Origin: Elusimicrobiota bacterium
Lineage (GTDB): Bacteria > Elusimicrobiota > Elusimicrobia > Elusimicrobiales > UBA9959
Assembly (NCBI GenBank): GCA_022013385.1
Contig: JAKLQJ010000119.1
Coordinates: 1 to 36,474, forward strand
Length of the DNA: 36,474 bases
Reading direction: 5' to 3'
In this document: positions 1-36,367 of the stretch, piece by piece
Numbering within the stretch: position 1 is the first letter of the stretch
How the letters are laid out: every line of letters begins with the position of its first letter
Translations under genes and position numbers: made by a program
The notes under the pieces: generated by a model
Told to the model about the DNA's origin: nothing
The model's database searches: none
Seen by the model: only the letters and a program-made list of their open reading frames with translations

Positions 1-1079
1 ACGGATGTGGCTAGCGGCAGAGAAGAACTTTCGGCCTTAATAGTGTGGCTTGAAGCTACTACGGGAGTAAATACAAAAACAGTCGCGCCGGATTCAAGCG
101 GTTGAGAAGAAGGATTTATATCGTATTGGTCGGTTATAATATTCACCGCCGCATAAAAATTGGCCGTAGTATCGGTGTTGTAATAAGGGTCAACCCCATA
201 AACAGTAGCGCTGAAAGTTGAACCGGCAAGCTGATCGATAGGAACGCCGATTTTACCCTTCGGTTCGCTTGTCTTGCCCTGAACCCTTGTCTCACCGGGC
301 AATAAAACCAAAAGTCTGTCAGCATCTTGCGCTATCACCGGCACATTGCTTGAAGGATTCGAAGCATTGCTATAAATCCCCTGCCCCTTGGCTCTTACAT
401 TCCAGCCTGTCGGATCGGCGGATACGAAAATCCTGTTTACTGTGGTAGAACCGACAAAGACCGCATTAGTATCAGGGCTTATGATTGAATTATTGTCGTC
501 GGTATCTGAAATATCCACGCTTGCCGCCGACGATAGCGCCAAGTTCCAATATTTATCGGTAACCCGAATTAGAAATGGAACGCTTAAACCCGCGGATTTG
601 GTTCTCGGCAAGCCCTCGCGGCCCTCGCTTCCGATAGGCTCCATTTTGCCTGGAGCCGGCATTTGGCCCGCAGGGTCAAAGTCGGCTATCACCTGCAATC
701 TGTCAGCTGTCGCCGGGTTAATAATGACGCTCGTAGTTCCGAATATACCCGGATTATCTTTATCTTCCACGCGTAAAGTTCTTATCGCCGCCTTTCTCGG
801 GCGGACAGTAAAATCATGTTTTCCAAGCCAAGCCGGCTGAAATTGCTGTTGCTTGGGCAAACCGTGTATTTCATCCGTTATATCATCATTATCCATATAT
901 TCAGGACCGCCGGGCGCGCCGTCTATATAGAAATTGAGCGTTCCGTTATAAGCGGAAGCGGTATTGCCTGAGCCGGCAATTCCATCCTTCGCCTCAACCG
1001 TCAGAGTTATATCAGACCCCGCCTCGGCAGGATTAACAGACACACTCAAAGCAAAACTCTGAGCGGGCGCCGCAATATA
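1..1079 (-). other. Start of a third domain type (about 3 Ig-like units), truncated by the window edge
   Basis: Unit 1: AQSFALSVSVNPAEAGSDITLTVEAKD..GN..YNGTLNF. Unit 2: ADRLQVIA..PGK..GLPRTKSAGLSVPFLIRVTDKYWN. Unit 3: ADRLLVLLPGE..GKIGVPIDQLAGSTFSATVYGVDPYYN. These lack the YWxG hairpin and the DxAGN motif. Confidence 0.6.
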
Positions 1080-28000: not shown

Positions 28001-31000
28001 TGCCGCTTATGCCGTCACTGTCATCCGCCGGCAATGTAATAAGCGTTTGGGGAGCCACCCTATCCACATAAATTGTCATTGATGAGATACCGGGCGTAAA
28101 ATCATTTTGAATATTGCCCGCTACATCGGTTGAGCGAACCAAAACAAGATACTTCAAACCGCCTGTAAAATCGCTATCTAAACCCGCGGGAGCAAATATC
28201 CAGCTTGTGGCATCAGGAGATAAAAAACCATTGCCGGCATTAATATCAAGCCAATGAGGTTCGGCGTTTCCGTCATCAAAATCGGCTCCGCCATACCATA
28301 GATACTGCGGGCTTCCCCATTTTTGAACGGCTATCTGAATATTTTCGTTTTTATGATCGTCATAAGCCGTTCCGGATATGGAAGGAATGGAATTGATGCC
28401 GCTATTATTGGCGTCAAGCGGAACAAGTATTTTTAAAGCCGGCTTTGAACGGTCTATAGTAAAACTTATTTCGTTTACAAGGCTGATATTGCCGGCTTTG
28501 TCTTCCGCGTAAAGCTGAGCGGTATAACTTCTGTCGGTTTCCCATGTTTGTCCCGTTTGGAAATAATCCGTCGTATATGTCGCCAAACTCCCATTACCGG
28601 CGCCTAAATCGGTATAAGGACTTAAAGCCGTAAATGTGGATTGTTGCCAATTCCAATATTCGGCGGCTTCCTGCCTCTTTACCCTAAAATATGATTTTAA
28701 AATACTGCCGGGCGAAACATCGCTAACATTGCCGGACATTGTGGAAATACCCGTTTCATAAGCCTTATCGGGTTCGATTATTAAAACCACCGGCGCCGTT
28801 GAATCTATTACAAAAGTATTCCCGCCGACGGGAGTTTCTTCGGTCAGATATACAATGTTTGAACCTTTTGATATAACACGATATTTTCTGTTCACATTCC
28901 AGCTCGCCGCCGCTATGGACCAGCTCCAGTTGGGCGCGGCGAAAGCGTCAACGCCGATAAAATCATTAAATGTATTGGTTGAAACCCATGCCGCCCCATT
29001 CCATGCCAAATTATCATTACCCGTCAATTCCCCTAAATCCGGGCCAAAATCAATGATTTTTAACTGAACCGTGGTTGAATAAACCGCCGTCCCGTTTATA
29101 GATGCCACGCTCGCTTTCCAATGAGGCGTATTTATATCCGGATTTATTATTGTGGTTAGCGGAATAGGCGTTTTTAATGTGAATTCAATATATGAAGAGT
29201 CATCCGCCACAGCCCCCGGTTTTGAAACCTCATTGCCCGCTTGGTCCACCGCCTTGGCGAAAATCCGATAATTGATTCCGATTGTGTTTGTAATCCATGT
29301 GGGACTTGACGCGCCGGTGGCTTCCCATTTATCGCTCGGCAAAATCGTCGCGTCAAGGAAACTGCCTGCTTCCGAAACCAAATCCCAAGCGCCTGTCGCC
29401 ATATTCCAATATTTGCCGCCGCAAACATCGTTAACGCAATAATATGACACCCTCACCTTATCCAAAACTCCCGGAGCAAAATCCAAAGCCGAACCCTGTA
29501 TTACTGTCAAATCTTCTTGAATTGTGCTGCCGTTTGTCGGATATGTAATGGTTGAAAACGGAGCATCAAAATCCGCGACTACATTCGCCGCCGTTGAATA
29601 CACTATTTGGACATTGCCGGCTTTATCCGCGCCGTACGCGTCTATAGTATATACACTTCCCGTCTCCCACGGCGCCGCGTTTAAATACCAATATGTCCCC
29701 CCCGAACTTAAATAACCGTAATTGACAATATCGTTAAATACACTGCCGCCCACCCAATCATTAGCGAGACTTGACCACCATACGGCATCCTTCTTTATCC
29801 TTACATATACATTATCTATTGCTCCGGGCGATGAATCCTGCGCCGCGCCCGTTATCTTGCCTGTTTGCGAAATATATCCGCTTGATAGCGGATATACCAC
29901 CGTCGCGGTAGGGATATCTATGTCATAAATAAAACTGTTTGTGGACAATATAAGCTCGCTATTGGCGGCCTTGTCAAATGCCTTTGAAATAATTTCGTAT
30001 TCTCTGCCGGCTTTCCAAAAATGAATCGCTTCCAAACCCGATTGCGGGGTATCCCAATACCAATTTTCAAAATTTGAATCCCAAACACCGTCATTCGCGC
30101 TAGCGGAGGGAAGATTGTCTATCGCAGGTTCGGCGAGAGCCCAATCCTCAAGAATTTTGTCCCAGTAGTATGTTGTGCTTTCTCCCAAATCGGAATTAGG
30201 CAGCCGTCTTATATTTAATTTCGTTTCAGTTAATACGCCGCGCGGATTGTCAAGAGCGAAACCGCTTATGGAGCTAAACTTGTTATTGAGATGTTGGTCA
30301 TCGGCGGGTTCGTTAACCCCGGAATCCGGTTTTTCAGGATCAGCCTCATACACATCATAGGTAAAGTATACCGTAGAAAGAGAAATTTCATAGTTGTTTG
30401 CTCTATCCAAAGCTTTAGAGATTAACCTGTATTTCATTGTGTGTTGCCAGCTTGGACCGGTAAATGTCCATGTGCCCGAACTGTTTCCCACATAAACCGC
30501 GTCAAACCAGTGAGCGGCATCCGTTTGATCGCCGATATCCCATAATGCCGGATTGGGATTGCCGTTGTATGTTTTATTATTGTTTGTATCATAAATATGC
30601 GTTTTTACCGCCTCTACCCTGCGTATCGCGTAAATGCTGACATTATCATCCGCGGTGCCGGATATTACGGATAATGAGCTTTTATGCTCGCCGTCAGCCA
30701 CATTGCTTATTTTTGTTCTCGGCGCTGAAGCATCAAAATAAAATGTATGGCTCTCCGCCGAACCCAAATTACCCGTTCCCGCTGTTTCGGTAGCATCAAC
30801 CGCATTATCTCTTGCGCGAGTATGAACCCTGTATTCGGCATTGTCCGACATTTCACCCGTCGGCGGCATAGGAGCCGTCCATACCATGGGATCGCCTCCG
30901 ATAAGCGACGCTACCGGCCAAGTTGAAGGTTCCACTGTCTTCCATTCAATGCCGGTCCACCAACCTTCCGGTGCCGGGAAACCTCTTTCCACTATTCCTT

Positions 31001-34000
31001 CCACTTTATACAATCCGGCAAATAATCCGCCGGGTCCCGGATAATCTTTGGCCGTGCCGCTGATTGTCCCTAAGGAAGGTGTGGAAAGACAATCATTATC
31101 ATCAGGAAAGGTTAATTGGGAAACCGGCGCCGTATTATCAAATGTTATTGTTTTTTCCGCCGCCAAAGCCGTATTGCCCGCCGCATCATAAACGCGCGCT
31201 CTAATTGTATAAGTTGTCCCGCTTGTTAGCGAACCTTCAAAACCCGTATATGTCCACGGATTCACGGCCGCGGCCGCTACCCAGGTTGACGGATTATTAA
31301 CAAAAGCCGAACCGTCCCAATAATAGTTATCCGACAAGCGTTGAATCTGCGCTTCAACCTTATCCGGCCCGGAAATGCCATCCGCGGATGAGCCCGATAT
31401 GGCGGATAATTCTTTCAATGTCACGCCGCCGCTCTGCGGCGCGCCTATGGCGCAAGTGGGCGGCGCATTGTCATATATGAAACTCTCACCCGCGGCAGGA
31501 GCTTCACGGCCGCCGTTCAGGCCGTAAGCCTTGCTTCTTATCACATACTGATGCCCTGAAATCATCTTAGCGATAGGAGTCGTATAGGTCCAGGTCTGGA
31601 ATGTTATGCTGTAATTGGCATCCAGCCATTGTTCAGTATTGGCTGAAAAATTTGCGCCGTCATACCAAGTTGTTCCCAGAGTTAAATCCTCCATACTCAC
31701 CCAGACATCTGCGGAATCGGCTGAAGCGTTTCCCTTAAGTTGCGCAATGCCCGCGCCGTTGTAATAAGGATTGCTTGGCGTGGTTATGGCAGAGGTGGGA
31801 TAAGCTCCGATAGTAACTGTGCTTGCCAGCGTAGAATATCCGCCCCCAAGATTAGTTACCTTTAGGTCCCACGGCCCCGCGGTTGCCGTGAGCGCGACAT
31901 TAACTTCCGCTTCTATATGCTGAGCGTCAATAAATGTTACCGCGCTTACCGTGACCAAGCCGTATACAATATCCACACTGCATCCTTCCTGAAAATAGTT
32001 TCCTGTAATCAAAATAGCTTCTCCCACCGCTCCTTTGCCCAATGTGCTTGGCTCTATTGAAATTATTGCGGGTTTTGGGCCGACAGTAAAACCATTGACC
32101 GCCTTATATTTGCCGCCGTCAGGATTAATAATAGTTACATCGCCGAGACCTGTTGACGCGCCGATATCAATGTCCATTTGAACATCTATTTGTCCCGCGC
32201 TTTGATAAAAGACTTGGCTGACAGTAATACCGGGATTGCTAAACAGCGCTTGTGGACTTCCCCCGACATTACTGAAAGCCGAGCCATAAATGGAAATCCA
32301 TTTGCCGAGCACGCCTTGGTCGCCGATATTGGGGTCTATGGAAGAAACCTGAGGCCTCGCATTAACCGTAAAGCCGGCATAATTTCTGCCCGCATCGGAA
32401 TTTATAACGGAAATGGTCCTTTGGCCTTGAGTGGCTGTCGCTGAAATGGTTCCGATATGCACGGTAAAGGATGAAGCATGATAGGTATAGCTAGCAATTT
32501 CAATATCTAAGCCGAAATCCGCAACGCATCCCGATTGATATCCCGAAACAAAAGTTATGCCTATATCCTGTTCGGTTGCTCCCTGACCTCTATTGCTTGG
32601 GATTACTTGAGATATTATGGGAGGCGTATTCACGGTAAATGTGCTATAAACGGTATCGTATCCCTCGTCGGTATTCATTAATTTGATAAATTTACTGCCC
32701 ACCGCGGCATCGGTTGAGATATTTATGGTAACCTGCGCCGTAGCGTCATTTAGAAGGTTTGCCGAAACGGGATAAGGAAGTATCTTGCCGGTTGCTCCCC
32801 CTTCAAAATACGCATTCATTCCGGCAACGAAGTTTTCTCCGTATATTGTAATAACCGAATTTACTGCCCCCGCTCCTCTATTATCGGGTGCGGCATAGCG
32901 GAACTTTGGCCGCGGATTAACTGTAAAGGCGCTGCTTAATACATCCGAACCGCCGTCGGGATTGAGTATTGTAAGGTCCCTTGCCGCCCCGGTGGGAGCG
33001 GCGTCTGGGTCTATTGACACATTCACTATAATCGTATCCGGCACATACACGGTTACATTGTTTATCGTAATGCCGGTAGCAGGCGCAAATATAATATCGC
33101 TGACGCCAATCCCCGACTGAAAATAACCCCCGCTTACGGTAAGATTGTAATTTGACGCCAATTGCCCCAGCTTATTAGGCGTGAGAGAGACAAGGGACGG
33201 GGCCGCGTTTATATACAACATCTTGGAGACGCTAATCGTTTTTCCCTTGTCCGGATTTACTAATTTGATATACCTTCCGCCGACAGGGCAATCGCCGCTT
33301 ACCGAAACATCTAATGAAATAAGGTTTACGGCATCTCTGACAAAACCGTTTATCGTGATATTCGGGTCCTGCGTATTGCAAGAGGACTCGGTGGAAATTA
33401 TGATATCCGATATGCCCAAACCGGCTTGAAAATAATCGCCCGCAAGCCGTATATTTTGATTTGCCGTCCCTTGTCCGAGTTCATTATCCGTCCAGCCTGA
33501 AACCTCTGTCTGTATTTGGCTTAAAACCGGCCTGCTGCTTACGGTAAATGGTTGCCAGTCACTGGCGAAAATTCCTTGATCGGGGTTTGAAATATTTATA
33601 TCCTTCGCTCCCGTCTGAGCCGCCACATCAATATTAACCGTAACGGTAATGGAGTCCGGAACGAAGGTATAATCATAGCCGGACACATTTACAATCGTAT
33701 TTAAGAATTCAACACTACAGCCTGTTTGCAGATTGGCGCCATTTATCACAATATCCGCATTCTGCGCGTTTTGTCCTAGCTGAACGGGTTCGACAGTTGT
33801 AAATGATGGGCCATAATTTACATCAATTTGGTCGACCAAACTATCGGAGCCCCAGTCAAGATTGGTCACTTTAATATCATATACGACTAAAGGGTCGGCG
33901 GCCGGAGAGATATCCACCTGGCATTGCAATATGCCGGCCCCGAGAACGCTTGTCCAGTCAACGGAAATTCCCCCTTCGGGAAAAGAAGCTTGCGCGCCGG

Positions 34001-35957
34001 ACACGAAATTGTTTCCCGTCACTGTAAGGATTATATTGCTTGCCCCCTGTCCGAAAGTAAGAACGGCCGGATCGGTTATAGCGCTAAGGGTTGGCTTCTC
34101 CTTTATCTCAAAAAAAGCGTCCGCCGGGACTTTTTTGTCATAACCGTCATCGGGATTTGTAATCGTGAAACTTGATTTACCGAGAGGACACGATGTCCCC
34201 ACCGAAACCTGAACCCTCAATCTATTCGGATCTTCGGTCAAATAAGTATAATCATAGCCGAATATCGTAATCCCGTCACTGCCGCTGGGAAGATTAAAAT
34301 CAATTGTGCCGCCATTCTGGAAACTATAGCCCTTTACATCTATCCACTTATTTGAGGCGCCTCTGGCAAGCTTGGCTCTTGGCGTCGCGTCAAGACCGAC
34401 GACCTGCGCGCTAATGAGAACCGGTTTGGGATTTATGGTAAAAGAACCTGTCTTTGTTGTTCTTCCCTTGTCGGGATTGGTCACGGTAATATTTCCTAAA
34501 CCATAAGTGGGGCTGTTTGAAATATCTATTACCGCCCTAATCTGCGCCCCGCTGTCAAATATGACATTATTGACTGTAATGCCCGAAGCGGAAAAATCAA
34601 CACTGCAACCGTTTATGAAACGCGCGGAAACATCGGTAATGGTAATAGTGCTTCCGGCCAAATCCGCTCCTTTTGCTATCGGACTTACCGTTAAATTGGT
34701 CCCGCCCGCTTCTTCGCCCGGCCTATAATTTACCGTAAACCAATCTATCCAAGAAGCGACGCCGGTATCGGCATTGGTTATGGTAATATCTCTTGGGCCT
34801 TGAGAAGCGCTTGCCAATACGCTGATTTGGCATTGAACCTCTGTTAATGACACATAATTGTTTGACGAGACAGTGATTCCCAAGCCGAAATCGGATGTAA
34901 AACCCGGCAAGAAACTCTTCCCTGTTATAGTTATCCACTCGCCCACCGCGTTCTGACCTCTATTATTTGGCGAAATTGTTAAAAGCGTGGGTCTTACCAT
35001 GAAAGCGACAGAGTTTGTATTTACCCCTTGCGCTGTGATATAAACATTTCCGCTTATAAGGTCATCGGGCGGGTCCGATATTGATATCTCATTATCGTCC
35101 CATGTAACTGTTGCATCGTCATAAGCTATCCACTTATTGCTTAGCTGTATGCCGTCGCCGGCTATCGGCGTTCCAAAAAGCGCTCCTTCAAGCGTCAGCC
35201 CATAGTCAACAGACACCTGAGAAGGATTTACGCTGAACAAATAAGGGATAAATGTCAAATCGCAATTCTCACAGGTAATTCTTGACAATCGAAGAGGATT
35301 GTCCAGCATAAGGCTATGAGTTCTACTATAAATTGTTGAGGCATTATGCCATTCCATTTCCACCACAAGACGGTCGCCGTCTAGAACCTGAATTTCAGAA
35401 CCCGGCGCATTATTTCGTATAAGCGCGCTCAGCGGGTAGGATGTATAGTGTGAGGTTCCGGTCGTAGAGCCTGAAACAGGGCTTAAAAGCAAAACCCCGC
35501 CCCTTTTGCCTGAATTATCGTTTTTCCATATATAAGCCGTAGCGCGAAGTGTCCAGTAGGCACTCCTTGCTCCACCAATACCATAAGTAAGCAGTGTCCA
35601 TGTCGTGGCTGTGGTTAAAAGCGTGGATTGCAAGGGCGGCGAAACAAACCTTGCCGCCGCGCCATAACCTTGCGCGCCGCCTGAGGGAAAAGTATATCCT
35701 ACGCTATAATCCGCCACAGTTCCTGAAGTTGTAGTCATTTTGTAATTATCAGCGTTAGTCGGCATACCCGAGCCAAAAACATCTGTTGTTTGCGCCGCGT
35801 CGGGCGCCGCCCCAACCGCATCCTCCGGATGAAAATACAATGTAGTCTGAGAAAAGACATCCCCTATTACAAACAACAAAAAGAATACCAAACCAATACA
35901 ACCTACGCGGTTGTATTTGGTTATTTCAATATAATTTTTGTTTCCCGTTTTTCTCAT
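1..35957 (-). CDS. Giant secreted/surface repeat protein with tandem Ig-like domains, at least 11,985 aa, 3'-partial (runs off the window's left edge)
   Basis: ATG at 35957-35955 (MRKTGNKNYIEITKYNRVGCIGLVFFLLFVIGDVFSQTTLYFHPED...), with an in-frame TAA at 35969-35967 just upstream that fixes the start. The same frame is still open at the left end (...VFVFTPVVASSHTIKAESSSLPLATS). None of the 13 minus-strand ORFs in the supplied track lies in this frame, which is expected if it has no stop anywhere. Hand translation at many points gives coherent repeat protein in this frame. Confidence 0.96.
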   Translation of the reverse strand, partial: MRKTGNKNYIEITKYNRVGCIGLVFFLLFVIGDVFSQTTLYFHPEDAVGAAPDAAQTTDVFGSGMPTNADNYKMTTTSGTVADYSVGYTFPSGGAQGYGAAARFVSPPLQSTLLTTATTWTLLTYGIGGARSAYWTLRATAYIWKNDNSGKRGGVLLLSPVSGSTTGTSHYTSYPLSALIRNNAPGSEIQVLDGDRLVVEMEWHNASTIYSRTHSLMLDNPLRLSRITCENCDLTFIPYLFSVNPSQVSVDYGLTLEGALFGTPIAGDGIQLSNKWIAYDDATVTWDDNEISISDPPDDLISGNVYITAQGVNTNSVAFMVRPTLLTISPNNRGQNAVGEWITITGKSFLPGFTSDFGLGITVSSNNYVSLTEVQCQISVLASASQGPRDITITNADTGVASWIDWFTVNYRPGEEAGGTNLTVSPIAKGADLAGSTITITDVSARFINGCSVDFSASGITVNNVIFDSGAQIRAVIDISNSPTYGLGNITVTNPDKGRTTKTGSFTINPKPVLISAQVVGLDATPRAKLARGASNKWIDVKGYSFQNGGTIDFNLPSGSDGITIFGYDYTYLTEDPNRLRVQVSVGTSCPLGKSSFTITNPDDGYDKKVPADAFFEIKEKPTLSAITDPAVLTFGQGASNIILTVTGNNFVSGAQASFPEGGISVDWTSVLGAGILQCQVDISPAADPLVVYDIKVTNLDWGSDSLVDQIDVNYGPSFTTVEPVQLGQNAQNADIVINGANLQTGCSVEFLNTIVNVSGYDYTFVPDSITVTVNIDVAAQTGAKDINISNPDQGIFASDWQPFTVSSRPVLSQIQTEVSGWTDNELGQGTANQNIRLAGDYFQAGLGISDIIISTESSCNTQDPNITINGFVRDAVNLISLDVSVSGDCPVGGRYIKLVNPDKGKTISVSKMLYINAAPSLVSLTPNKLGQLASNYNLTVSGGYFQSGIGVSDIIFAPATGITINNVTVYVPDTIIVNVSIDPDAAPTGAARDLTILNPDGGSDVLSSAFTVNPRPKFRYAAPDNRGAGAVNSVITIYGENFVAGMNAYFEGGATGKILPYPVSANLLNDATAQVTINISTDAAVGSKFIKLMNTDEGYDTVYSTFTVNTPPIISQVIPSNRGQGATEQDIGITFVSGYQSGCVADFGLDIEIASYTYHASSFTVHIGTISATATQGQRTISVINSDAGRNYAGFTVNARPQVSSIDPNIGDQGVLGKWISIYGSAFSNVGGSPQALFSNPGITVSQVFYQSAGQIDVQMDIDIGASTGLGDVTIINPDGGKYKAVNGFTVGPKPAIISIEPSTLGKGAVGEAILITGNYFQEGCSVDIVYGLVTVSAVTFIDAQHIEAEVNVALTATAGPWDLKVTNLGGGYSTLASTVTIGAYPTSAITTPSNPYYNGAGIAQLKGNASADSADVWVSMEDLTLGTTWYDGANFSANTEQWLDANYSITFQTWTYTTPIAKMISGHQYVIRSKAYGLNGGREAPAAGESFIYDNAPPTCAIGAPQSGGVTLKELSAISGSSADGISGPDKVEAQIQRLSDNYYWDGSAFVNNPSTWVAAAAVNPWTYTGFEGSLTSGTTYTIRARVYDAAGNTALAAEKTITFDNTAPVSQLTFPDDNDCLSTPSLGTISGTAKDYPGPGGLFAGLYKVEGIVERGFPAPEGWWTGIEWKTVEPSTWPVASLIGGDPMVWTAPMPPTGEMSDNAEYRVHTRARDNAVDATETAGTGNLGSAESHTFYFDASAPRTKISNVADGEHKSSLSVISGTADDNVSIYAIRRVEAVKTHIYDTNNNKTYNGNPNPALWDIGDQTDAAHWFDAVYVGNSSGTWTFTGPSWQHTMKYRLISKALDRANNYEISLSTVYFTYDVYEADPEKPDSGVNEPADDQHLNNKFSSISGFALDNPRGVLTETKLNIRRLPNSDLGESTTYYWDKILEDWALAEPAIDNLPSASANDGVWDSNFENWYWDTPQSGLEAIHFWKAGREYEIISKAFDKAANSELILSTNSFIYDIDIPTATVVYPLSSGYISQTGKITGAAQDSSPGAIDNVYVRIKKDAVWWSSLANDWVGGSVFNDIVNYGYLSSGGTYWYLNAAPWETGSVYTIDAYGADKAGNVQIVYSTAANVVADFDAPFSTITYPTNGSTIQEDLTVIQGSALDFAPGVLDKVRVSYYCVNDVCGGKYWNMATGAWDLVSEAGSFLDATILPSDKWEATGASSPTWITNTIGINYRIFAKAVDQAGNEVSKPGAVADDSSYIEFTLKTPIPLTTIINPDINTPHWKASVASINGTAVYSTTVQLKIIDFGPDLGELTGNDNLAWNGAAWVSTNTFNDFIGVDAFAAPNWSWSIAAASWNVNRKYRVISKGSNIVYLTEETPVGGNTFVIDSTAPVVLIIEPDKAYETGISTMSGNVSDVSPGSILKSYFRVKRQEAAEYWNWQQSTFTALSPYTDLGAGNGSLATYTTDYFQTGQTWETDRSYTAQLYAEDKAGNISLVNEISFTIDRSKPALKILVPLDANNSGINSIPSISGTAYDDHKNENIQIAVQKWGSPQYLWYGGADFDDGNAEPHWLDINAGNGFLSPDATSWIFAPAGLDSDFTGGLKYLVLVRSTDVAGNIQNDFTPGISSMTIYVDRVAPQTLITLPADDSDGISGRYNSADIGKSGPPDTRFYGHVDDTYYSANNSGADATNRIRFSYLLSGDTYYWMGVIFSSGAAAEADAWRTASVFTGTPPLIWMYTTDIIWPSGDRPYRLEVKSGDKSRLSDDTGAGNWETEPFLIHNFIVDSSPPLLSITSPTAAAVLSYTPAIAGTAAAAISGLKEALIKVSSYSAGGWVLVSEDNQANNVWISSWSWTGLSGLIDQTTYQLVAKCRDKANNWTVEYSTITFVYDTIKPIVGIINPVNNRYYGKNSAESGYYLSGISGTSSDAQNIEKAEARIYEVNTSSYWHTTGWELNISSWHYAGAGAGGWQVELPPLTDGYKYRVEARAYDMGGNLSVYATNYFYYDLEAPTVALDNPGASFLNGLGQIDGTAQDEDSIGPYTSGMLKAQIAIQRNPPLGFWWDGGGFDSTGRVWLDNSAGPPAWTLTGSSTPSWVTNTKYRVEARSMDVSRNTSTVVTQEFIYDTQLPVAITTVPSSAYITSLEYIRGTSADTNGLGEIKEVQMRVKNVSANAYWNLGTGDYDISGQEAAWFVVSSTVTPLYSSWFSTGTPGGISFISGSDYEINVRAQDKALNYVNVYSTRAFRFDNQIPVSSVTAPSAEYISDEAPYAISGTSSDSGSEVTAVKVKIRRNSDNYWWSATDNSFISSEKENTATSVDPWYINVNSGLSDNVSYYAQTSAWDQSALIEAYPGGNPVTFWVDYLSPTSGISEPESGNNYSSLTEITGTASDTVRLDSLAIRIKRDSDNLYWNDSADDFTIFYASNAWIDLGSLGQRTTDWTYTDNFNWTGNPPTQYDINARAKDMLRYETNFTTITFTYDTAAPAPIVNVPGSLEYISAPLWPQTTMQGTIAVDASIVEARLRDLAQGTTYWNEGTKLWQEGEVWNIADIYAQGFWRLKVSASAFVSGRKYALYVKGTDASIPAPNVGYSAQPMFWYDTDKPTSTVTNVSDGALLAGLGEISGTAWDSSHFGPVGTSLDKTEISIYNEQSGNYFTGSGWGAETPLNVSLGGESFNGTDFRWEHDWAIIPSTGWLNNYDYEIRYRATDKAGNQEDNSLSNPDNPRVRFTIDLQPPVAIATSPADSGIYGGSWDIYGTAFDNKGLDLIEICLKKSTSTGFSPPYMYWDGVFWHDDEGYDLWISSDDLKNLSVTALNWSHKGVNWTSGKYELSARAKDDVGRWQTNITTSSFIVDMLNPNSSVSLPENGGAYNASGLSLIQGQSDDDLSGIPADGVSVWIRDLGIKGELEWPTTYWNGAGWLESASAIWIPVNVISPETLATPWTYSVPNVIDGHRYEIQSKATDSAGNVQTILATNIFDYDIRYPTATITQPVDGSELSALDEIQGLYKDYYPGSELDEESVKVSIRQNFGSYLYWEGPATGWGAVEYWLDATETLINKSAATGVLAAWNYYDVPAWENLKSYIVRAKAVDSAGNAQENLGDTFISSATFTYDANAPQTEIYTPYAVNLPAYDYFTPSVVQGKSTAGEAEVDKVEILIIREGAPLYYWNWAGSWVTGNEADYWKDIGITAAVGPVYWRYDGTDMPGTVGSYSLFYYATIKARCSTQIKDEIAGAGETFYSAGDRPWSIVDTPYHGEISSGTISIIGRAWSDYTGGTNWVKVSVYNKTLEEYWDQSLGGGIGGWGSGGEVWNDAVLGGDEGEYRPFTFDASSITWTTGEYIIRSKRQFVSASYIEVPHKGSMYIVDISPPESRVTAPLNNTKHSNLSVIEGTAEDAGPAGLQSVKVAIKWLDGGTTKYWNGSTDLWDTIETEVWNAAAIDESSWTYTESNIDWTYAEEYYITSIAADKGGNAETAAYQGKTFLCDNQGPVSQITYPVDGETYSDVASITGTSYDEYTIPADGQARLHRDINGDDIPDGTWDGTQWISYDANVWFSVDDFTVLGTTATLTKNMSGAWNSGYKYYVNIRSKDSAESGANQGAASPQAAFWIDNENPTTLIQLPSAAQYNSLPLISGTAKDNRKLHTADTEQTVKIRVFTPIGAGYWDFINGAWETCESPCDPNTYFSTTAFSWAGGAQSSGTFSYSFTSQPWVSGYTYRIEARSRDYVDNYDAVYSTKTFKFDNTNPETAVVFPVDGTHYASISTDSITGTSFDPSAGSGVAQVKLYLRDLTQGAAYWNGVGWTGSEIWLFTAMIADDWYWLGQDYGKPTWEDGHLYKLVSKAYDAATNQEENGLGNADIRDSEFVYDISKPTSSIAYPYNNGYISRTGKITGDSYDKPNGMVENAYIRIKQSFGPKEDHYWRVSDSSWTVEGAPEVWNDVISSGTLSANATWWQLGTTPWQTGEVYEINAYAKDKADNHQLIYSTATNIKADFTSPTSTVTYPANGQIIQVELTVISGSASDLPPGVLDKVRLSYYCGSGVCSGKYWDRNTGLWSSDTEIFYDAAILPNDKWEATGASTPTWITSVAGINYRIFAKGMDLAGNEVAKPGAPAANSSHIGFTLTTPQPISLIAVPDISEPHWRLATIPSISGTAVHSTTVQLKIIDFGPDLGELTGSDNLCWDGGAWVSTNTFNNFVGVNSFDGLNWNFSLSPAQWNGNRQYKVASKGINEDPEPDLPEEYTEGTGEKFIIDSSAPIVAITVPAADYIKSLVQLEGNVSDISPGVLQNTYFRVKRELIEQYWNWQESTFTALSPPYTSLTANVAGNLATYTTDYFSSGQAWETDKTYIAQFFSNDKAGNSSWAGEKTFTVDRTSPVSKILVPPNGITGINSIPLISGTVSDDHKNESVQIAIQQWGDPQLWYNGVSFNEGDIRWIDINAGNGFLSPDATSWIYAPANMNDNFSGGLKYLILTRSTDIAGNVQTDFIVDSSSMVIYVDKAAPDTIITLPADDADGISGRYNPANIGKSGIPDTRFKGTVTDNDYSANNSGADNPNKTRLSYLLSGDTYYWTGIGFSSGTAAYDNAWQPASVSGSAPIWNWLYTADIIWPSGDRPYKLEVKSMDKSRLSDGIGEGNWETEPFITHNFMVDNTPPSVQITSPTELSLNSNTNIYGTADANISGFDLAKIRISTGTTVKHYWDDSAGAWVTSAGTWNDTIKLGSTSWYYTVDPSILIENTVYTVEAQALDYAGNYSTLYSTRTFLNQRPQSKISVPSAVAYNTLLELSGTAEDNIGISGIRISIRNYDQSKCYDPSYTPDPWFTAGCNSIDDAPWISPQTLIYESSASWTYDIEDSTWTSGANFRIRIKSQDKAGNWDILYDTATFQFDTHAPVSTVTYPVDGSYLNLSDRDITVTGTSSDFGSGVTDVKFYLKKSNGDYWNGLAWQSVPVYLLADNTNPWSELLNRAETYVDSEKYTIETMATDIATNEEEGGYGLKCAFVYDISKPTGAITYPYNNGYISQTGKITGDSYDKPNGMVENAYIRIKQSFGPNEGRYWRVSDSSWTVEGAPEVWNDVISSGTLSANATWWQLGTTPWQTGETYEMNSYVKDKANNYDTVYSTVTGITADFTAPTSTITYPGHGDIVQTDLTIISGSASDLLPGVLDKVQLSYRCVSGACNGKYWNRITGAWDSDTALFYDADILPDDKWEATGASTPTWETSTSGIDYEIFAKGVDQAGNEVVKPGAPAAASSYIKFILQTPSPISLIATPDTSVPHWRLTAIPGIAGTAVHSTTVQLKIIDFGPDLGELTGNDNLAWNGSIWVSTNTFNDFVGVNSFDGTNWSFSLLSAQWNGNRQYKIASKGINEDTVPDLYEEYTEGAGKKFIIDSSAPVVAITVPAADYIKSLVQLKGNVSDISPGVLQNVYFRVKRELIEQYWNWQESTFTALSPPYTDLTANVAGNLATYTTDYFSSGQAWETDKVYIAQLFSNDKAGNLGIAGEKIFTIDRTSPTSKILIPSTWTVRSLPSISGTAFDDWKNKIVQIAIQKQAGAPFWYNGESFIVPGSNPNWIDIGAINGYLSPDATSWTYSPTGMNADFASNYKYWIIVRALDIAENMEDEQALNVSSMTIYIDKDKPVSYISMPLDDGDGISGRYNSANIGQTGNGTQLEGTAFENPSNTYAGVKDSFIRLSYLLSGDTYYWTGAEFSSYTVTEATAWQANTLAASPPVWNWYYLEDIAWSTDDREYTLEVKAMDDSRLSDNTGDGNWEIAPYIKRKFIVDDTPPSVQITSPTELSLNSNTNIYGTANADMAGHKLTYIRISTTGIEGTKYWNGDTGVWAAAPDTWNDSIKLGQTSWYYTIDKNILIEKTDYTVEARVLDYAGNYSTLYSTRVFNNERPSSFISVPSAVAYNTLTELSGTAEDNIGINEIKMTIFDYSQGKYYDPSLSGAWSISGKTENEAPWISVSPTIWTTSASWTYAVEDSTWTTGASFRIRIKSEDKIGNWDITYATASFQFDTGMPISDVVYPADGEHINLSAKPITIKGTSYDALSGVNQVKFYFRKSNGYYWNGINWQSDISVLSGEEPLDNWVQNITLDAAYVDGEKYTIETNAFDVATNEEGYGLKCTFVYDIKRPTAAITYPYNNAYISQTGKITGNSYDTPNGMVGNMYVRIKQLAGPKIAHYWRVSDSSWTVENAPEVWNDVISSGTLSANATWWQFGTTPWQTGEEYEMNVYGRDKAGNYQLVYSTATNIKADFTAPTSTVTYPANGSTVDSELTIISGSASDTAPGELDMVAVSYYKADAPLGYWDRNAGNWSSASELFYNAAILPDDKWEASGASTPTWITTKDGVNYRIFAKAVDKAQNETAKIGPANGPWIQFKLQTPKPDTAIAVPIAGQPYYKPSDLTVISGTALYSTTVQVRIINTASEPDTVWTPGGWISTVTYLAGCTEDTYVIGQSTCGFFGADNLAWTKNISGIWPAGTNKFKLAVRGYNDNESIPEPSPFVERYFHIDGDFPDSTLIKPDAPYEKPLSKIDGTASDLGIGVITKVEIALSTGNLSYYWDGAYWVAGSSWLIVNAGDGIFDSNSEYWYLDTQLPQWEANKAYELQVKITDKAGNIKTTPSPFFDFTIDTSSPVARIIEPSTGSIRLISQISGTALDNWGNNEVKVAIRQLDAPPLWFDGSSFQLTQSATYWISVNSNGYLSPDATSWIYAPSGLDSKFTPGSSGLKYLLLSKAEDIAGNAQQNFNIDISSIIVNIDRKAPTSSITFPLDNSDGLSGRYQSSNVGKSATSSRLKGSVSDSFYTQNNAGVESGKIRVSYLETGDTYYWTGSNFSSYTVTEITAWQGVNITENEPNWDWVYLPDMLWDGDREYKLETKFMDKSRTADNPLSEGNWETAPFVTHKFIVDDSPPSVEITSPTSVAHNSIPTIYGDANGDIAGFNSARIRISTGTAVKKYWEGDTNEWVTAAETWNKTDKLGSTSWYYAVEGAMLEDDTIYTVSAKTLDYAGNYSILYSTYAFTYDITEPSVALNFPKNGKTYSQIFISTPVLGTSASNQSSPNTGVSTVTIAVSKVDGDENYTNCFDGSSFIACVAPIWLPINGGTVADWTFNDNDIAFINDSRYKFEAKSADFAKNNSSISGVIVKYDIEKPTSTITAPNGEYVNSLTQISGTASDDTDGALSYEAGLGTYTVKVAIRRLSGSAGWWDEGTSDFSSGSPKWYEANNSTVTSPNEFSYGLSAAIQTNMTDPSRQNYQYRIVTWAYDLAQNREFGPNTGQPDNADIPASVGRTINFDNAIPVAITTAPANNSYKNDIPALYGITTDTGVVTTVQLMIKADAFSSVWKGTYNGDSTDWDDSDLYTHWSTATYSNGEWNIPLPNIDYVNNNRLYVWARAIDKAGNWSPTPSNAQIDNNLNADALPAHYFSFDKSDPVTGITVPESFVLANSTGLVRGTSYDGSPQPSGVSAVRIKLKRSDGAYWRFTNDDWFGAAGDDYNTNGTNPWEKSFNESALNDGYQYNFYSYARDNALNNSDGAYFSTFTFIVDMTTPTSKIDFPVNNSFIGSVPAITGTADDSVENINGWSSPRNFESGISESETAVEVAIERLADEKWWDGLGFNSAIREWKKADFVGMSSGTWTYNLPLGAIADGTTYHAMSRVRDIVSNIQTQYTTNYFTGDTTKPTSKATFPTGTVEFVNLVSGTAQDTLPGELKDSGVVEISIKQISGLGFPQCYDGSDFISCPGGVYPDDRLWIATATVDNVKGQPGNWNFNTSAISWINDSQYDIQALAVDKAGNKALTPGLESPDISFYLQTPQANTTISNPAGPDDKNYRAGDVLTISGVGSNLRAVDSVKIHIKRLKEPASWWYEPSLHWVDSDTYTFTSATAGSWALGINGNAAFTVDNASYTVTTIGYNSSNEAQSPSTQRRIVIDNTIPVGEILAPGTYYINSMPAVSGTATDPGNITQPSLNKAGGANIYVRIKDIDAGTYWSGSSFTVSGAESYIEAEYAAATIVNWSTATLVNSGLKDGKKYGVYFIPKDKAQNKQTDEGQMTNYEVLFDTRTPKTYISYPANMKVLRSLALIEGTALDEAGFYAPNYKSDLNKVEIQIYDEANNKYWGGSNFDQGSSSFNVVSGTSTWTYSGVTGASGRYYILQTRAWDKAGNAQSGFTDTVSSMTFIWDTTPPNSSINQPVDTVKYKPTGLSGIDALNGGASDASLPFVGELLNKVQIHLSYLDGGTTYYWAGSNFSSWTVTDITAWQDASGTDTWKYSFSSDDWISDKEYTLKTRAFDKAEPMGANGGNEQDPWAARTFIVDGTPPVSRVSTPAAGGFIQNTLSEISGTSYGGASGLESGAPGLKLRAYYISGTDTWYWTGVKWSSPTAIDLPVDFTASASTVTWTYPPVSYNLPDISIHNQVYNFSIAGLDEAGNQETPSIISVTSDFNYPAVTVSTPMSGENAFYGTSRALGTLTGNSADVPSGIVPPIKIQISNLSEAGAIKPKWNGLAWTVVESTWLAVTNLNPWTYSEPSLAGNKRYKAQMWAQDNAGNYIPQDAVVSEFIYDINKPSTTILSPSLPFSKASQVATFSGTAIDWVNTSTEAISGIAPGGIEIQVFDSGGNSFNGTGFAVGNFWRKADITFTGIVTDAVIGVDINSGANWTYPKAPDTWPPSLTEGSTYYVRARSIDRSQNTEVYIEKQFCYDNSAPSVDVTLPGDNFAYTALPQIEGTFLEPYSGINPGDGIQVLIQRNGDGAYWNGATWDLVGDYNPSSHWINASNVYSSSWTYISPSLANYFNTLGGALKFKIYVRGKDLAQNISRPDNPAPSSGENLFTMDRFAPVSVSTSPALGNGPAVYLNHPISIIAGTAAEVEAGIPSGLNNVFVRIRRFDIGSARCDYDALLNQWLTTLSDGWNQQDGGSLSEWTKNIEPTAFRGANPGDCYSGADKGNGFKFEVQSYARDNTQPVNGGPNTEIIYSTAVFILDYSTPTASIVSPVHQSFFNAKSLVSGIADDPIVGGGINSELDEIEFLLTDTDFQPQKYWNFNSLTWQGAFVSTTIAASSDWSVSALPSNNPILADSWAIGRTSATFVLKAKVFDKAGNYSDFNLNQSTFTLDLVEPNSAITVPAIEGDGVLTIASVSGTADDFTADISTVQIRIRQDTVQDIDCTNTGNNGYYWNGISWQIPEKWHGVNSYNWGTNAWSFNSSAITFKPQCFYIAKSSAVDNASNGESSFGSRRFKFTPPPSETGITMPLNLKYYKELTVVNGTANDDTQKLALEIIRLSDDYYWNFDASVWQSVAVSTGSIMPSGGNWTYDVNLPEFIDSSSYTMRSIGTNFSNVDESVPLMIQFFFDTAAPNTVVNIPGALNPYYNSLDILGGAVIDLPGTSPPAAGIYKVWTQIKANNGDYAGKYWDNASSTFTVSWSQSANESVYYVAGSSWEYAVSYPTSAFINGVQYEVKAKASDLTYNNTALEGNQSELSTGKVFSYDISIPTAAVACVYADEARSNVQIASGALHETMVIANEAQLPGMQIDTVKLHIKDNISSQYWTGSSWNPSSLVSTNSSVHQSSWSIAAIPSWADKGIYTMWVEAIDKAGNTQTIFTGNGSSVTFTIDKSAPLIDINSIASGAKISDLVSVSGTANDPNWDTNSGMASMNNIQIQISYLDGGNTYYYDNAAQFSSTTLDNTNSWWSATNWAVQGPSSGTWIYTQAGFQGAMVQDKIYAIKARAQDNAIPVANPSNVFDNVVAKTNILYDITPPESRVTAPLDGAVLKTLASISGAALDNLAGISSMGQIEISIQEVSPGNAYWTGIVPGTFTATSETFYPLSGASLNGSYDGLNWNMDAPAFSNGYLYRIKVRAKDDVLPPNEETEISSVTFTYDTFAPGAAITFPVGLPSSQGNLKTLASVSGTAYENFKIKSASISFQEVGSSLYYDVGFATFNSITQKWITAGISGSGPNYTWTASAPPLQDNISYNIQVIADDIAGNVMTPPTATTIRYDTTPPLSGVVSPADGSFFNNIVSITGTAQDQNTNPSGASGAQITISSGTVFWNGAIWVVSETWLAAASGANWTKNTQLPPSDNSTGLTDGGLYTIRTRAYDIAGNTETVTGGSSFRFDVSSPTAFISQPEDASRYNSLLSISGTANDAFNVNYPQIRIFDVPLTKYWSESSGWIDSSTWNIVNSSSSQSGEFGWAYDSSLVSWPDRDHELRIEIKTKDRAGNYSITSSTFSFDKTPPGSAILYPPSDDILYSSMTNITGTALDYGSPLDEVRIKMWYISAGTTYYWTPDTIGGKHWIINDPDWPTLLGGGPKATILSWDFSHSDFDDPSQLIYVWKQATHDGVNGKKFYIASKARDSTANDEINYSTRTFIFDNEPPMSGPDRPGPDTAYNSLAVLSGTSVDGVTTVDSVFISILSENEIGGPKYFTGSEFTSDTEVWLPILSLYPSSWTYTNGLLEFTSAYHYIVKSSATDSIGNVQLAVGKSRFLFDITEPKSSILNPVNDVIYNDNKMLSGNSSDPGFTTGINGAGSGVYPSLGWHKGGVNILVFRDTEPYLAPAGPIPYGGWDDTGYFWNGSTWTAASEGAVWDSAVFTDSLGNWQYDSLICPDPNPTNIPCWVRGDRYASWIKATDNAGTQQTIITQGPKFYIAAPAQSFALSVSVNPAEAGSDITLTVEAKDGIAGSGNTASAYNGTLNFYIDGAPGGPEYMDNDDITDEIHGLPKQQQFQPAWLGKHDFTVRPRKAAIRTLRVEDKDNPGIFGTTSVIINPATADRLQVIADFDPAGQMPAPGKMEPIGSEGREGLPRTKSAGLSVPFLIRVTDKYWNLALSSAASVDISDTDDNNSIISPDTNAVFVGSTTVNRIFVSADPTGWNVRAKGQGIYSNASNPSSNVPVIAQDADRLLVLLPGETRVQGKTSEPKGKIGVPIDQLAGSTFSATVYGVDPYYNTDTTANFYAAVNIITDQYDINPSSQPLESGATVFVFTPVVASSHTIKAESSSLPLATS
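11925..21755. repeat. Tandem intragenic super-repeat with a ~3.39-kb period (9 domains): copies B (~17985-21380), C (~14600-17985) and a more diverged partial D (~11925-14600)
   Basis: CACCATGTGGCATTGGCGCTTAATGTTCCCGAACTTA occurs at 21121, 17725 and 14344 (offsets 3396 and 3381). A 72-nt identical stretch lies at 16551-16622 and 19947-20018. Paired shadow ORFs 16835..17056 and 20231..20452 are also offset by 3396. Confidence 0.9.
27560..29930. repeat. Displaced partial copy (A) of the same super-repeat
   Basis: AATTCCCCTAAATCCGGGCCAAAATCAATGATTTTTAA occurs at 29026, 20461 and 17065. The domain order and the DDxDGISGRYN and SRLSD..GNWE motifs match copies B and C. Confidence 0.85.
31805..35249 (-). 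other. Array of 12 IPT/TIG-like Ig-fold domains (1 short classical type plus 11 of ~90-110 aa)
   Basis: First unit: PYLFSVNP..LTLEGALFG..VTWDDNEISI..SGNVYITAQGVNTNSVAFMV. The next 11 share P-x(4-5)-P-x(2-3)-G[QK]GA..ITGxNF..GITV..G-x-RD[IL]T[IV]xNPDxG..FTV. Their late motifs in order are NADTG, NPDKG, NPDDG, NLDWG, NPDQG, NPDKG, NPDGG, NTDEG, NSDAG, NPDGG, NLGGG. Confidence 0.8.
35250..35849 (-). other. Single-copy N-terminal domain (~200 aa), probably a beta-sandwich
   Basis: Reads QTTLYFHPED...ARFVSPPLQS...YWTLRATAYIWK...IQVLDGDRLVVEMEWHN...ITCENCDLTF. It has alternating hydrophobic strands and I did not see it repeated in the window. Confidence 0.5.
35850..35957 (-). other. Probable Sec/SPI signal peptide, aa 1-36, cleavage VFS|Q
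   Basis: Basic n-region (MRKTGNK..K..R), hydrophobic core (IGLVFFLLFVIG) and small residues at -3/-1 (V-F-S) before QTTLYF. No lipobox Cys at the predicted cleavage site. Confidence 0.75.
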
Positions 35958-36202: not shown

Positions 36203-36367
36203 CCTAATTGCCTAATTACCTAATTACCTAATTGCCTAATTACCTAATTACCTAATTGCCTAATTACCTAATTACCTAATTACCTAATTACCTAATTGCC
36301 TAATTACCTAATTGCCTAATTACCTAATTGCCTAATTGCCTAATTACCTAATTGCCTAATTGCCTAA
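36203..36367. repeat. 8-bp tandem repeat (CCTAATT[A/G]), 20 full units plus a partial unit
   Basis: Read directly. The variable last base runs G A A G A A G A A A A G A G A G G A G G (11 A, 9 G). Confidence 0.98.

Follow-up and report, generated by a model that had tools for sequence, protein, structure and literature searches.

SprB of Flavobacterium johnsoniae, a type IX secretion system (T9SS) cargo with a type B C-terminal sorting domain (CTD), is anchored on a PorP-like barrel of its own, SprF, and the available part of PMC9143113 proposes that it is held there by the barrel rather than by a sortase. A comparable arrangement is encoded in a groundwater bacterium of the phylum Elusimicrobiota (order Elusimicrobiales), in which a single giant gene fills most of the 36,474-nucleotide stretch analysed here (contig JAKLQJ010000119.1 of assembly GCA_022013385.1, positions 1 to 36,474; hereafter the window) and runs on beyond it. 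As with SprB and SprF, a very large and repetitive putative surface adhesin that carries a predicted Sec signal at its start and a putative sorting domain at its C-terminus is accompanied by an adjoining gene for a dedicated barrel, on which it would likewise be anchored. It differs from that pair in its barrel, which belongs to the PorV/PorQ rather than the PorP/SprF family, in its CTD, which resembles the type A/FlgD-Ig form, in the phylum, and in that neither GldKLMN nor PorU was found in the searches made here. The encoded protein is about 2.5 times longer than SprB. With the type A CTD cargo of Porphyromonas gingivalis, as presented in the available sections of PMC8545088 and PMC10994853, it has in common a predicted signal peptide, a putative immunoglobulin-like (Ig-like) beta-sandwich CTD and a PorV-family carrier, the interface between CTD and barrel being confidently modelled.

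The RTX adhesins exported by type I secretion systems (T1SS), such as MpIBP, SiiE and LapA, are similar to the giant protein in their homologous runs of bacterial Ig-like (BIg) extender domains, their variable repeat number and their distinct distal region. Unlike them, the giant protein has no RTX repeats, would be exported by means of a Sec signal and a CTD, and would be anchored at its C-terminus; LapA-type adhesins are held by their N-terminus. Proteins of comparable size have been counted in two surveys (bioRxiv 10.1101/2023.11.21.568195 and PMC11573180), which in their accessible text place the Elusimicrobiota among the phyla rich in proteins of more than 5,000 or 10,000 amino acids (aa). 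Like these Omnitrophota and Elusimicrobiota giants, the present protein comes from an uncultured groundwater lineage and belongs to the class of at least 10,000 aa. The same accessible text gives counts for the Elusimicrobiota, with no architecture, export route or gene cluster, and for the Omnitrophota giants it reports type II/IV-like secretion genes and PilZ neighbours instead of a CTD accompanied by a PorV-family barrel. T9SS genes are stated to be absent outside the Fibrobacterota-Chlorobiota-Bacteroidota (FCB) phyla in the portion available of a paper from 2024. Literature searches linking Elusimicrobia or Elusimicrobiota with type IX secretion, T9SS, PorV or FliG returned nothing relevant; the supplementary tables of 10.1101/2023.11.21.568195 and PMC11573180 may list these proteins, and the PorV/PorQ-family database models fit them, so that annotators may already label them as such.

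It is likely that the gene encodes a giant Sec- and CTD-dependent surface fibre of this groundwater Elusimicrobiota bacterium. The locus would represent a variant of the giant BIg adhesins combined with CTD/PorV-type export, in a phylum where, going by the available portion of the 2024 paper, T9SS genes are said to be absent. It provides the full anatomy of one huge-protein family that the accessible text of the two surveys leaves uncharacterised, offers an export and anchoring hypothesis for which the CTD and its barrel, both small, would suffice as test material, and bears on the origin of type IX secretion and its minimal working core.

The window corresponds to the whole of contig C61 in bin G000, which comprises 2.85 Mb in 299 contigs with a GC content of 39%, is 97.7% complete with 0.9% contamination, and in which no 16S rRNA was found. 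Positions 3 to 35,957 of the minus strand encode the first 11,985 codons of the giant gene, with an ATG start, an open 3' end at base 1 and no stop in the translation, in agreement with the initial annotation, made from the sequence of the window, which had described one open minus-strand frame of more than 35.9 kb and at least 11,985 aa. The frame is missing from the default list of open reading frames (ORFs) because frames running off the source are left out, and besides it just two ORFs of at least 150 aa occur in the window. The suggestion that the gene runs on beyond the window was borne out as well. Joined with contig C252, which adds 4,135 residues, it comprises 16,120 codons (48.4 kb), of which the window holds about three quarters, and the translation of the window frame, examined for an in-frame stop, revealed none. 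The gene is single-copy, and its GC content of 46% (46.3, 46.6 and 43.9% at the three codon positions) compares with 39% for the genome, while a steady negative GC skew on the plus strand stems from the minus-strand coding. Horizontal transfer was considered on account of the raised GC content and rejected as unsupported, all three codon positions being raised and the gene being collinear with that of relatives.

The terminal 141 bases of the contig (window positions 1 to 141) are common to the ends of two contigs, C252 and C246, and the assembly graph forks at this point; the overlap length presumably equals the k used by the assembler. On C252 the frame continues for 4,181 aa, of which 46 overlap, and on C246 for 1,725 aa; the two continuations are 76% identical for 559 aa and unrelated thereafter. 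An assembly artefact, in which the repeats would be chimeric or expanded, or the join wrong and C246 the true 3' end of a 13,664-aa protein, could draw on this fork, on the similarity of C246 to C252 over these first 559 aa and its own terminal sorting domain, and on the distribution of the bin over 299 contigs. Comparison with relatives makes such an artefact very improbable. In G021, a relative labelled Elusimicrobiales, one open frame of 13,127 codons is located on a single 108,930-base contig; its start is orthologous to the N-terminus encoded in the window (57% identity) and its end to that of C252 (64% over 700 aa), and its 13,124-aa product aligns with the joined protein in an unbroken fashion from aa 4552 to 16120, at 47% identity, with the joint at aa 11,985 inside the aligned stretch. 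In G068, a 12,781-aa protein encoded by a single frame on a 528-kb contig aligns with aa 5590 to 16120 at 50% identity. Both are thus single frames on single contigs in other assemblies, and the C61-C252 joint was chosen over C246 because collinearity with these orthologs persists across the joint and as far as the end of C252.

The interior of the window offers little purchase for an artefact either. No exact nucleotide repeat within C61 exceeds 72 bases, a length below that of the 141-base overlap, and contigs from four further public runs belonging to three studies, all recorded as groundwater, span positions 1 to 20,000 of the window in all 30 bins with neither joint nor indel, so that the chimeric or expanded assembly which the initial annotation had named as a danger to its reading was not encountered there. 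One contig from these runs extends 1,574 bases beyond window base 1. In run X3, the contig depth, which is one figure per contig, is about double at positions 1 to 1334, and differences are clustered at positions 236 to 1371, a weak hint that bases 1 to approximately 1334 may be shared with a paralogous gene.

Such a paralog may account for the second branch of the fork. Contigs C80 and C246 are best read, from their sequences, as parts of one paralogous gene, which would encode at least approximately 4,280 aa if joined. On C80 (L011), a frame of 2,322 aa that runs off the contig on either side encodes Kelch and fn3 domains together with Ig units of the B type described below, which are 53% identical to aa 10231 to 11661 of the giant protein. 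Where C61 and C80 are compared with G021 over one common stretch, identity is 54.8% for C61 and 41.6% for C80. C246 (L010) encodes CarboxypepD_reg, CARDB and fn3 domains followed by a TIGR04183 sorting domain above the cut-off, and its domains past the first 559 aa are absent from the orthologs of the giant protein; its best partner is C80. The sorting domain is followed by a PorV/PorQ barrel of its own (305 aa, 181 bits) and then by a WD40 protein. The assembly would have forked because the paralog shares a near-identical stretch with the giant gene.

Beyond the window, the repeats of the giant protein give way to approximately 3,250 aa without internal repeats or Pfam matches, and four pieces of this region, searched against Pfam at E up to 1, gave nothing except a weak FlgD_ig match. 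The AlphaFold model of the last 1,200 aa (predicted local distance difference test, pLDDT, 89.7) is a string of beta-sandwich domains, for which Foldseek retrieved fibronectin, titin and contactin strings together with PorU 6za2; this part of the protein, although outside the repeats, would therefore also be bead-like. The last 100 or so residues appear to constitute a T9SS-type/FlgD-Ig-like CTD, a beta-sandwich in the model, which aligns with the CTD part of NF052323 (31.8 bits) and with that of PorU NF033707. An anchor or export signal had been expected beyond the window, a T9SS-like/FlgD-Ig CTD being one of the forms named, and a candidate of this form was found at the end of the C252 continuation.

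The gene directly downstream encodes a protein of 538-543 aa, the first 330 or so residues of which form a PorV/PorQ-family barrel (NF033709, 110.3 bits against a cut-off of 90), the rest consisting of tetratricopeptide repeats (TPR). It shares a contig with the giant gene in G021, G036, G068 and G029, whereas in G000 it stands at the beginning of C139, its product there being 73% identical to the G021 copy; the PorV-like neighbour that the initial annotation had recommended looking for is hence present both in relatives and in this genome. When residues 45 to 345 of the barrel were modelled with the CTD, the complex score was 0.93, the best of three controls reaching 0.00; the mark for this score is reached by 58 of 80 solved complexes and by 2 of 110 mismatched pairs. 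Contact agreement between runs was at least 96% and partner pLDDT at least 88. The model supports binding of the CTD by the barrel, and a PorV-substrate-like complex has already been solved, according to the available part of PMC10994853.

Pairing of this kind is common in the genome, since 9 of the 13 TIGR04183 domains of G000 have a PorV-like match just downstream on the same strand. Counted over G000 and 20 relatives, PorV-family matches number 24 in G000 and 6-39 per genome in its family; genomes of the order's small-genome family have 1-3. The pairing of cargo genes with barrel genes of their own and the 24 PorV-family matches contrast with the one shared PorV of P. gingivalis, as given in the accessible text on that species, and a PorU-like peptidase was not seen here.

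At its other end, the protein begins with a signal-peptide-like N-terminus (aa 1-36; positions 35,850 to 35,957, minus strand), predicted from a hydrophobicity heuristic and from conservation among orthologs to be cleaved after VFS and before QTTLY. The n-region is positively charged, the h-region and the ensuing FS/QTTLY are retained in the three orthologs compared, and residues 16 to 39 are the sole stretch of the 16,120-aa protein with a Kyte-Doolittle value of at least 1.8 (19-residue window). Both the Sec signal peptide and the lack of internal transmembrane (TM) segments that had been read from the window are in accord with these results. A Q directly follows the predicted cleavage site in the giant protein (FS/Q; window 35,850), its barrel (FA/Q; L072:410-2041), the FliG-like protein described below (FA/Q; L072:2329-4233) and the barrel of C246 (YG/Q; L010:2112-3026), a feature reminiscent of what is reportedly called the 'Bacteroidetes Q-rule'.

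The signal peptide is followed by a unique N-terminal head (aa 37-322; positions 34,992 to 35,849, minus strand), which is all-beta by prediction and conserved at 56-64% identity among 7 aligned sequences. It belongs to no Pfam family, the ESM Atlas returned no usable match, and a search for homologs of the head among longer proteins retrieved only 2 partial ones.

From these parts a route to the surface can be proposed. The protein would cross the inner membrane by Sec export via its N-terminal signal peptide, and its last 100 or so residues, the T9SS type A/FlgD-Ig beta-sandwich, would be bound by the dedicated downstream PorV/PorQ-family barrel. Passage through the outer membrane would perhaps take place via a SprA-like 1,779-aa protein encoded on C147, or by another route. 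The C-terminal end would keep the fibre attached, with a conserved base of approximately 4,400 aa proximal to the cell, an 81-unit BIg stalk pointing outward and an exchangeable head at the tip as the binding part. Anchorage would be non-covalent on the barrel, like that of SprB on SprF, which is considered more likely than linkage to anionic lipopolysaccharide (A-LPS) because no PorU sortase was found.

A number of results weigh against the CTD-dependent fibre. The CTD remains below the curated cut-offs of TIGR04183 (17.4 bits against 23), FlgD_ig (16.6-18.5 against 27) and Por_Secre_tail, and the high score of its complex with the barrel may reflect likeness to solved PorV-substrate structures. 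With the queries used, no barrel was detected in the 9 kb downstream of the giant gene in G011 and G012. Among the components of the type IX machinery, PorU (NF033707) was matched in its CTD part only (model positions approximately 870-1095) in 17 of the 21 genomes, never over the cut-off; GldK gave weak partial matches, none over the cut-off in the 21 genomes; GldM gave no match in any of the 21, and GldL and GldN gave none in G000, no control genome being positive for any of these three. The machinery by which Bacteroidota power type IX export was thus not seen in these searches. The SprA/Sov-like 1,779-aa ORF of C147 (L038, 3080-8419) matches TIGR04189 with 84.5-99.7 bits against a cut-off of 200, in N-terminal parts only. 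Furthermore, the AlphaFold model of the head (aa 36-400, 7 sequences) has a pLDDT of 46.6, too poor for a fold search, and a role as adhesin is suggested by the architecture. The SprA-like ORF has no Pfam match; it is situated divergently beside genes for LptF and LptG.

The bulk of the protein between head and base is made up of three successive repeat families, the units of which were counted with iterated hidden Markov models (HMMs) built for this protein. Family A comprises 11 IPT/TIG-like units of approximately 97 aa (aa 323-1391; positions 31,785 to 34,991, minus strand), which match the choice-of-anchor Z repeat NF058597 (33.4 bits against a cut-off of 30) and, in annotation precomputed on a homolog, PF01833; the A-unit profile had no sequence match in the PDB. 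Family B contains 81 units with a mean length of 126 aa (aa 1396-11639; positions 1,041 to 31,772, minus strand), identified as bacterial Ig-like extender domains by HMM, Pfam and PDB profile matches. They exceed the Pfam cut-offs for Big_7 (44.6 bits against 24.1), Big_3_2 (38.5 against 23.3) and Big_13 (34.2 against 27). A profile built from 41 of the 81 units matches PDB entries 4p99 (the RII extender of Marinomonas MpAFP, 1.6e-7), 2yn3 and 5irb (RTX-adhesin), as well as the surface-layer protein HPI of Deinococcus (8cka; E 0.0062). Judged by their sequence, the B units share ancestry with the extenders of RTX adhesins. A link outside all three repeat HMMs (aa 11640-11759; positions 681 to 1,040) leads to family C, of which the first two of nine units lie in the window (aa 11760-11985; positions 3 to 680, minus strand) and the other seven on C252, the family spanning aa 11,760 to 12,870 in total.

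The window accordingly holds 94 domains (11 A, 81 B and 2 C units), close to the 95 or so in three successive repeat families that the initial annotation had estimated, and its description of the repeats as Ig-like is sustained by the Pfam matches above the cut-offs and by the solved RTX-adhesin extenders. Its failure to recognise a catalytic domain was repeated here, no catalytic Pfam family being found at E up to 0.01, as was its failure to see RTX nonapeptides (GGxGxDxUx), of which there are 0 in the 16,120 aa, with a mean of 0.24 in shuffled sequences. The homology of the B units to the extenders of MpAFP RII, 2yn3 and an RTX-adhesin is what could speak for an RTX adhesin that, like LapA, SiiE or MpIBP, is secreted by the type I route; the lack of RTX nonapeptides, the signal-peptide-like start, the CTD of the T9SS kind and the PorV-family neighbour already contradict this, leaving it next to no probability. 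Solved strings of Ig-like domains measure approximately 4-5 nm per domain. At this spacing the roughly 130 domains of the whole protein would span about half a micrometre, and the number of domains and the C-terminal position of the sorting domain together suggest a free single chain of approximately 0.4 micrometre or more with the head at its tip, as had been envisaged from the window.

The stalk is partly variable between relatives. One-to-one orthology with the G021 protein extends over aa 1-2000 and from approximately aa 7000 onward and is lacking in a variable block of B units at approximately aa 2000-6900 (positions 15,258 to 29,960, minus strand), delimited by its identity profile, in which identity to G021 is 20-37% as opposed to 40-72% in the flanks. 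Recent duplications are evident within this block, where copies up to 85.7% identical occur at offsets of approximately 1,125-1,132 aa, corresponding to nine units. Measured from the C-terminus, where the consensus end is RKIGVIH, collinearity reaches over 11,570 aa in G021 and 10,530 aa in G068, and over the last 4,380 aa only in the most distant ortholog compared, the 17,603-aa protein of G011.

Homologs of the last 700 aa were found in 53 of the 151 genomes sampled from the order, with open frames of up to 17,613 aa free of stops. By family, they occur in 51 of 74 genomes of the window's family, in none of the 74 of the small-genome family and in one of the two of a third family, and most genomes with a C-terminus match carry the giant gene once. 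The likeness to giant proteins of Elusimicrobiota-like lineages, which the initial annotation had offered as an impression, is consistent with the labels of these relatives (Elusimicrobiota, Elusimicrobiales). The first 330 aa, comprising the head region, turned up in no more than 4 of the family's 80 genomes; seven full-frame orthologs have N-termini unrelated to that of the window, all of them with signal-peptide-like starts. The plan of the family is therefore a conserved base of approximately 4,400 aa, a stalk of varying length and an exchangeable head.

This plan also bears on whether the protein could instead be a structural coat, that is an S-layer-like lattice, a sheath or a biofilm matrix, rather than a discrete fibre with a binding tip. 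An all-beta string of beads with no recognisable binding or catalytic domain would suit such a coat, as would the match of the B-unit profile to HPI and the match of the C246 paralog to part of the anammox S-layer glycoprotein model, the latter at 41.8 bits against a cut-off of 1400. Exchange of the head (4 of 80 genomes) over a retained base (53 of 151), however, is easier to reconcile with a tip that meets changing targets than with a lattice, the number of repeats varies freely, as it does in stalks, and there is mostly one gene per genome. A coat is hence considered unlikely.

The putative surface fibre is encoded beside a further conserved gene pair. The order giant gene, barrel-TPR gene, FliG-like gene and coiled-coil gene is kept in G036, G068 and G029. 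The FliG-like protein (634 aa) has a signal-peptide-like start, one TM segment (203-233), FliG_M and FliG_C domains and TPR, and matches TIGR00207 with 121 bits at model positions 112-326 of 338; the coiled-coil protein that follows is 752 aa in length. Of the 151 genomes, 60 encode the FliG-like protein, which is distributed over the families as the giant protein is. Counted by hand, 39 of the 53 genomes that have the giant C-terminus carry the FliG-like gene 2-4.5 kb downstream of it, on its strand and its contig. A second FliG-like gene of G000 (C266, 296-1720) has a 475-aa frame matching TIGR00207 with 59 bits. The FHIPEP flagellar export gate was not found in the 97.7%-complete G000, 4 of 14 control genomes being positive, and the conserved FliG-like neighbour in such a genome may lead to an uncharacterised machine that spans the envelope.

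These neighbours raise the question of whether the fibre is part of a motor-coupled apparatus, in which the CTD would sit in the barrel, the TPR arm of the barrel would meet the periplasmic domain of the FliG-like protein, and cytoplasmic FliG_M/FliG_C and the coiled-coil protein would couple the fibre to an ion-driven stator, so that it might be moved, turned or tensioned in the manner of the gliding adhesin SprB. The conserved gene order, the proximity of the FliG-like gene in those 39 genomes, the topology and domains of its product and the lack of a detected FHIPEP gate in G000 are all compatible with such a coupling. Gene order is, however, a weak sign of a physical link; in G011, G012, G025, G014 and G148 the giant and FliG-like genes are found on different, long contigs; the match to FliG does not reach the curated cut-off of 226.7 bits; FliG_C and the MgtE N domain are related, making other roles possible; and no stator gene was seen beside the cluster, without a dedicated search. 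Coupling to a motor is accordingly judged improbable. The broader conception of a type IX-derived fibre system of environmental Elusimicrobiales that dispenses with the PorK/L/M/N ring and motor and with PorU, employs one barrel per cargo, and uses the TPR arm of the barrel, the FliG-like protein and the coiled-coil protein as a link across the envelope between a 0.5-micrometre fibre with exchangeable heads and an apparatus in the cytoplasm, perhaps driven by a stator, is speculative and likewise unlikely; if true, bacteria outside the FCB group would possess an adhesion or motility organelle of a new type.

Upstream of the giant gene, the surroundings are less uniform. In the two relatives that share the head type of the window (G021, L023 1046-9848; and L022 1020-4552), the giant gene is preceded by genes for two paralogous multi-TM proteins with C-terminal TPR (555 and 619-622 aa), and in G021 this pair is itself preceded by genes for HEAT-repeat, LPG_synthase_TM-methyltransferase, radical SAM and radical SAM/B12/GT2 proteins. 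The two multi-TM/TPR proteins might act as modifying enzymes on the Ser/Thr-rich fibre protein. They were rejected as a part of the system, having not been found upstream in G068, G036 and G011, which carry other heads.

In the window, a tandem array of 20.6 copies of an 8-base unit (positions 36,203 to 36,367) is located 246 bases upstream of the start codon, and the contig ends just past it. Contig C120 (L071) probably lies upstream of C61, as the same 8-base array is found at its end (bases 5-140). It contains the 3' end of a gene for a TPR membrane protein, two or three nucleotidyltransferase/HEPN-type pairs, an ORF6N protein and a methyltransferase. The HEPN/nucleotidyltransferase island was set aside as a part of the system, since it looks like an insertion. 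A similar short repeat follows the stop codon of the giant gene on C252.

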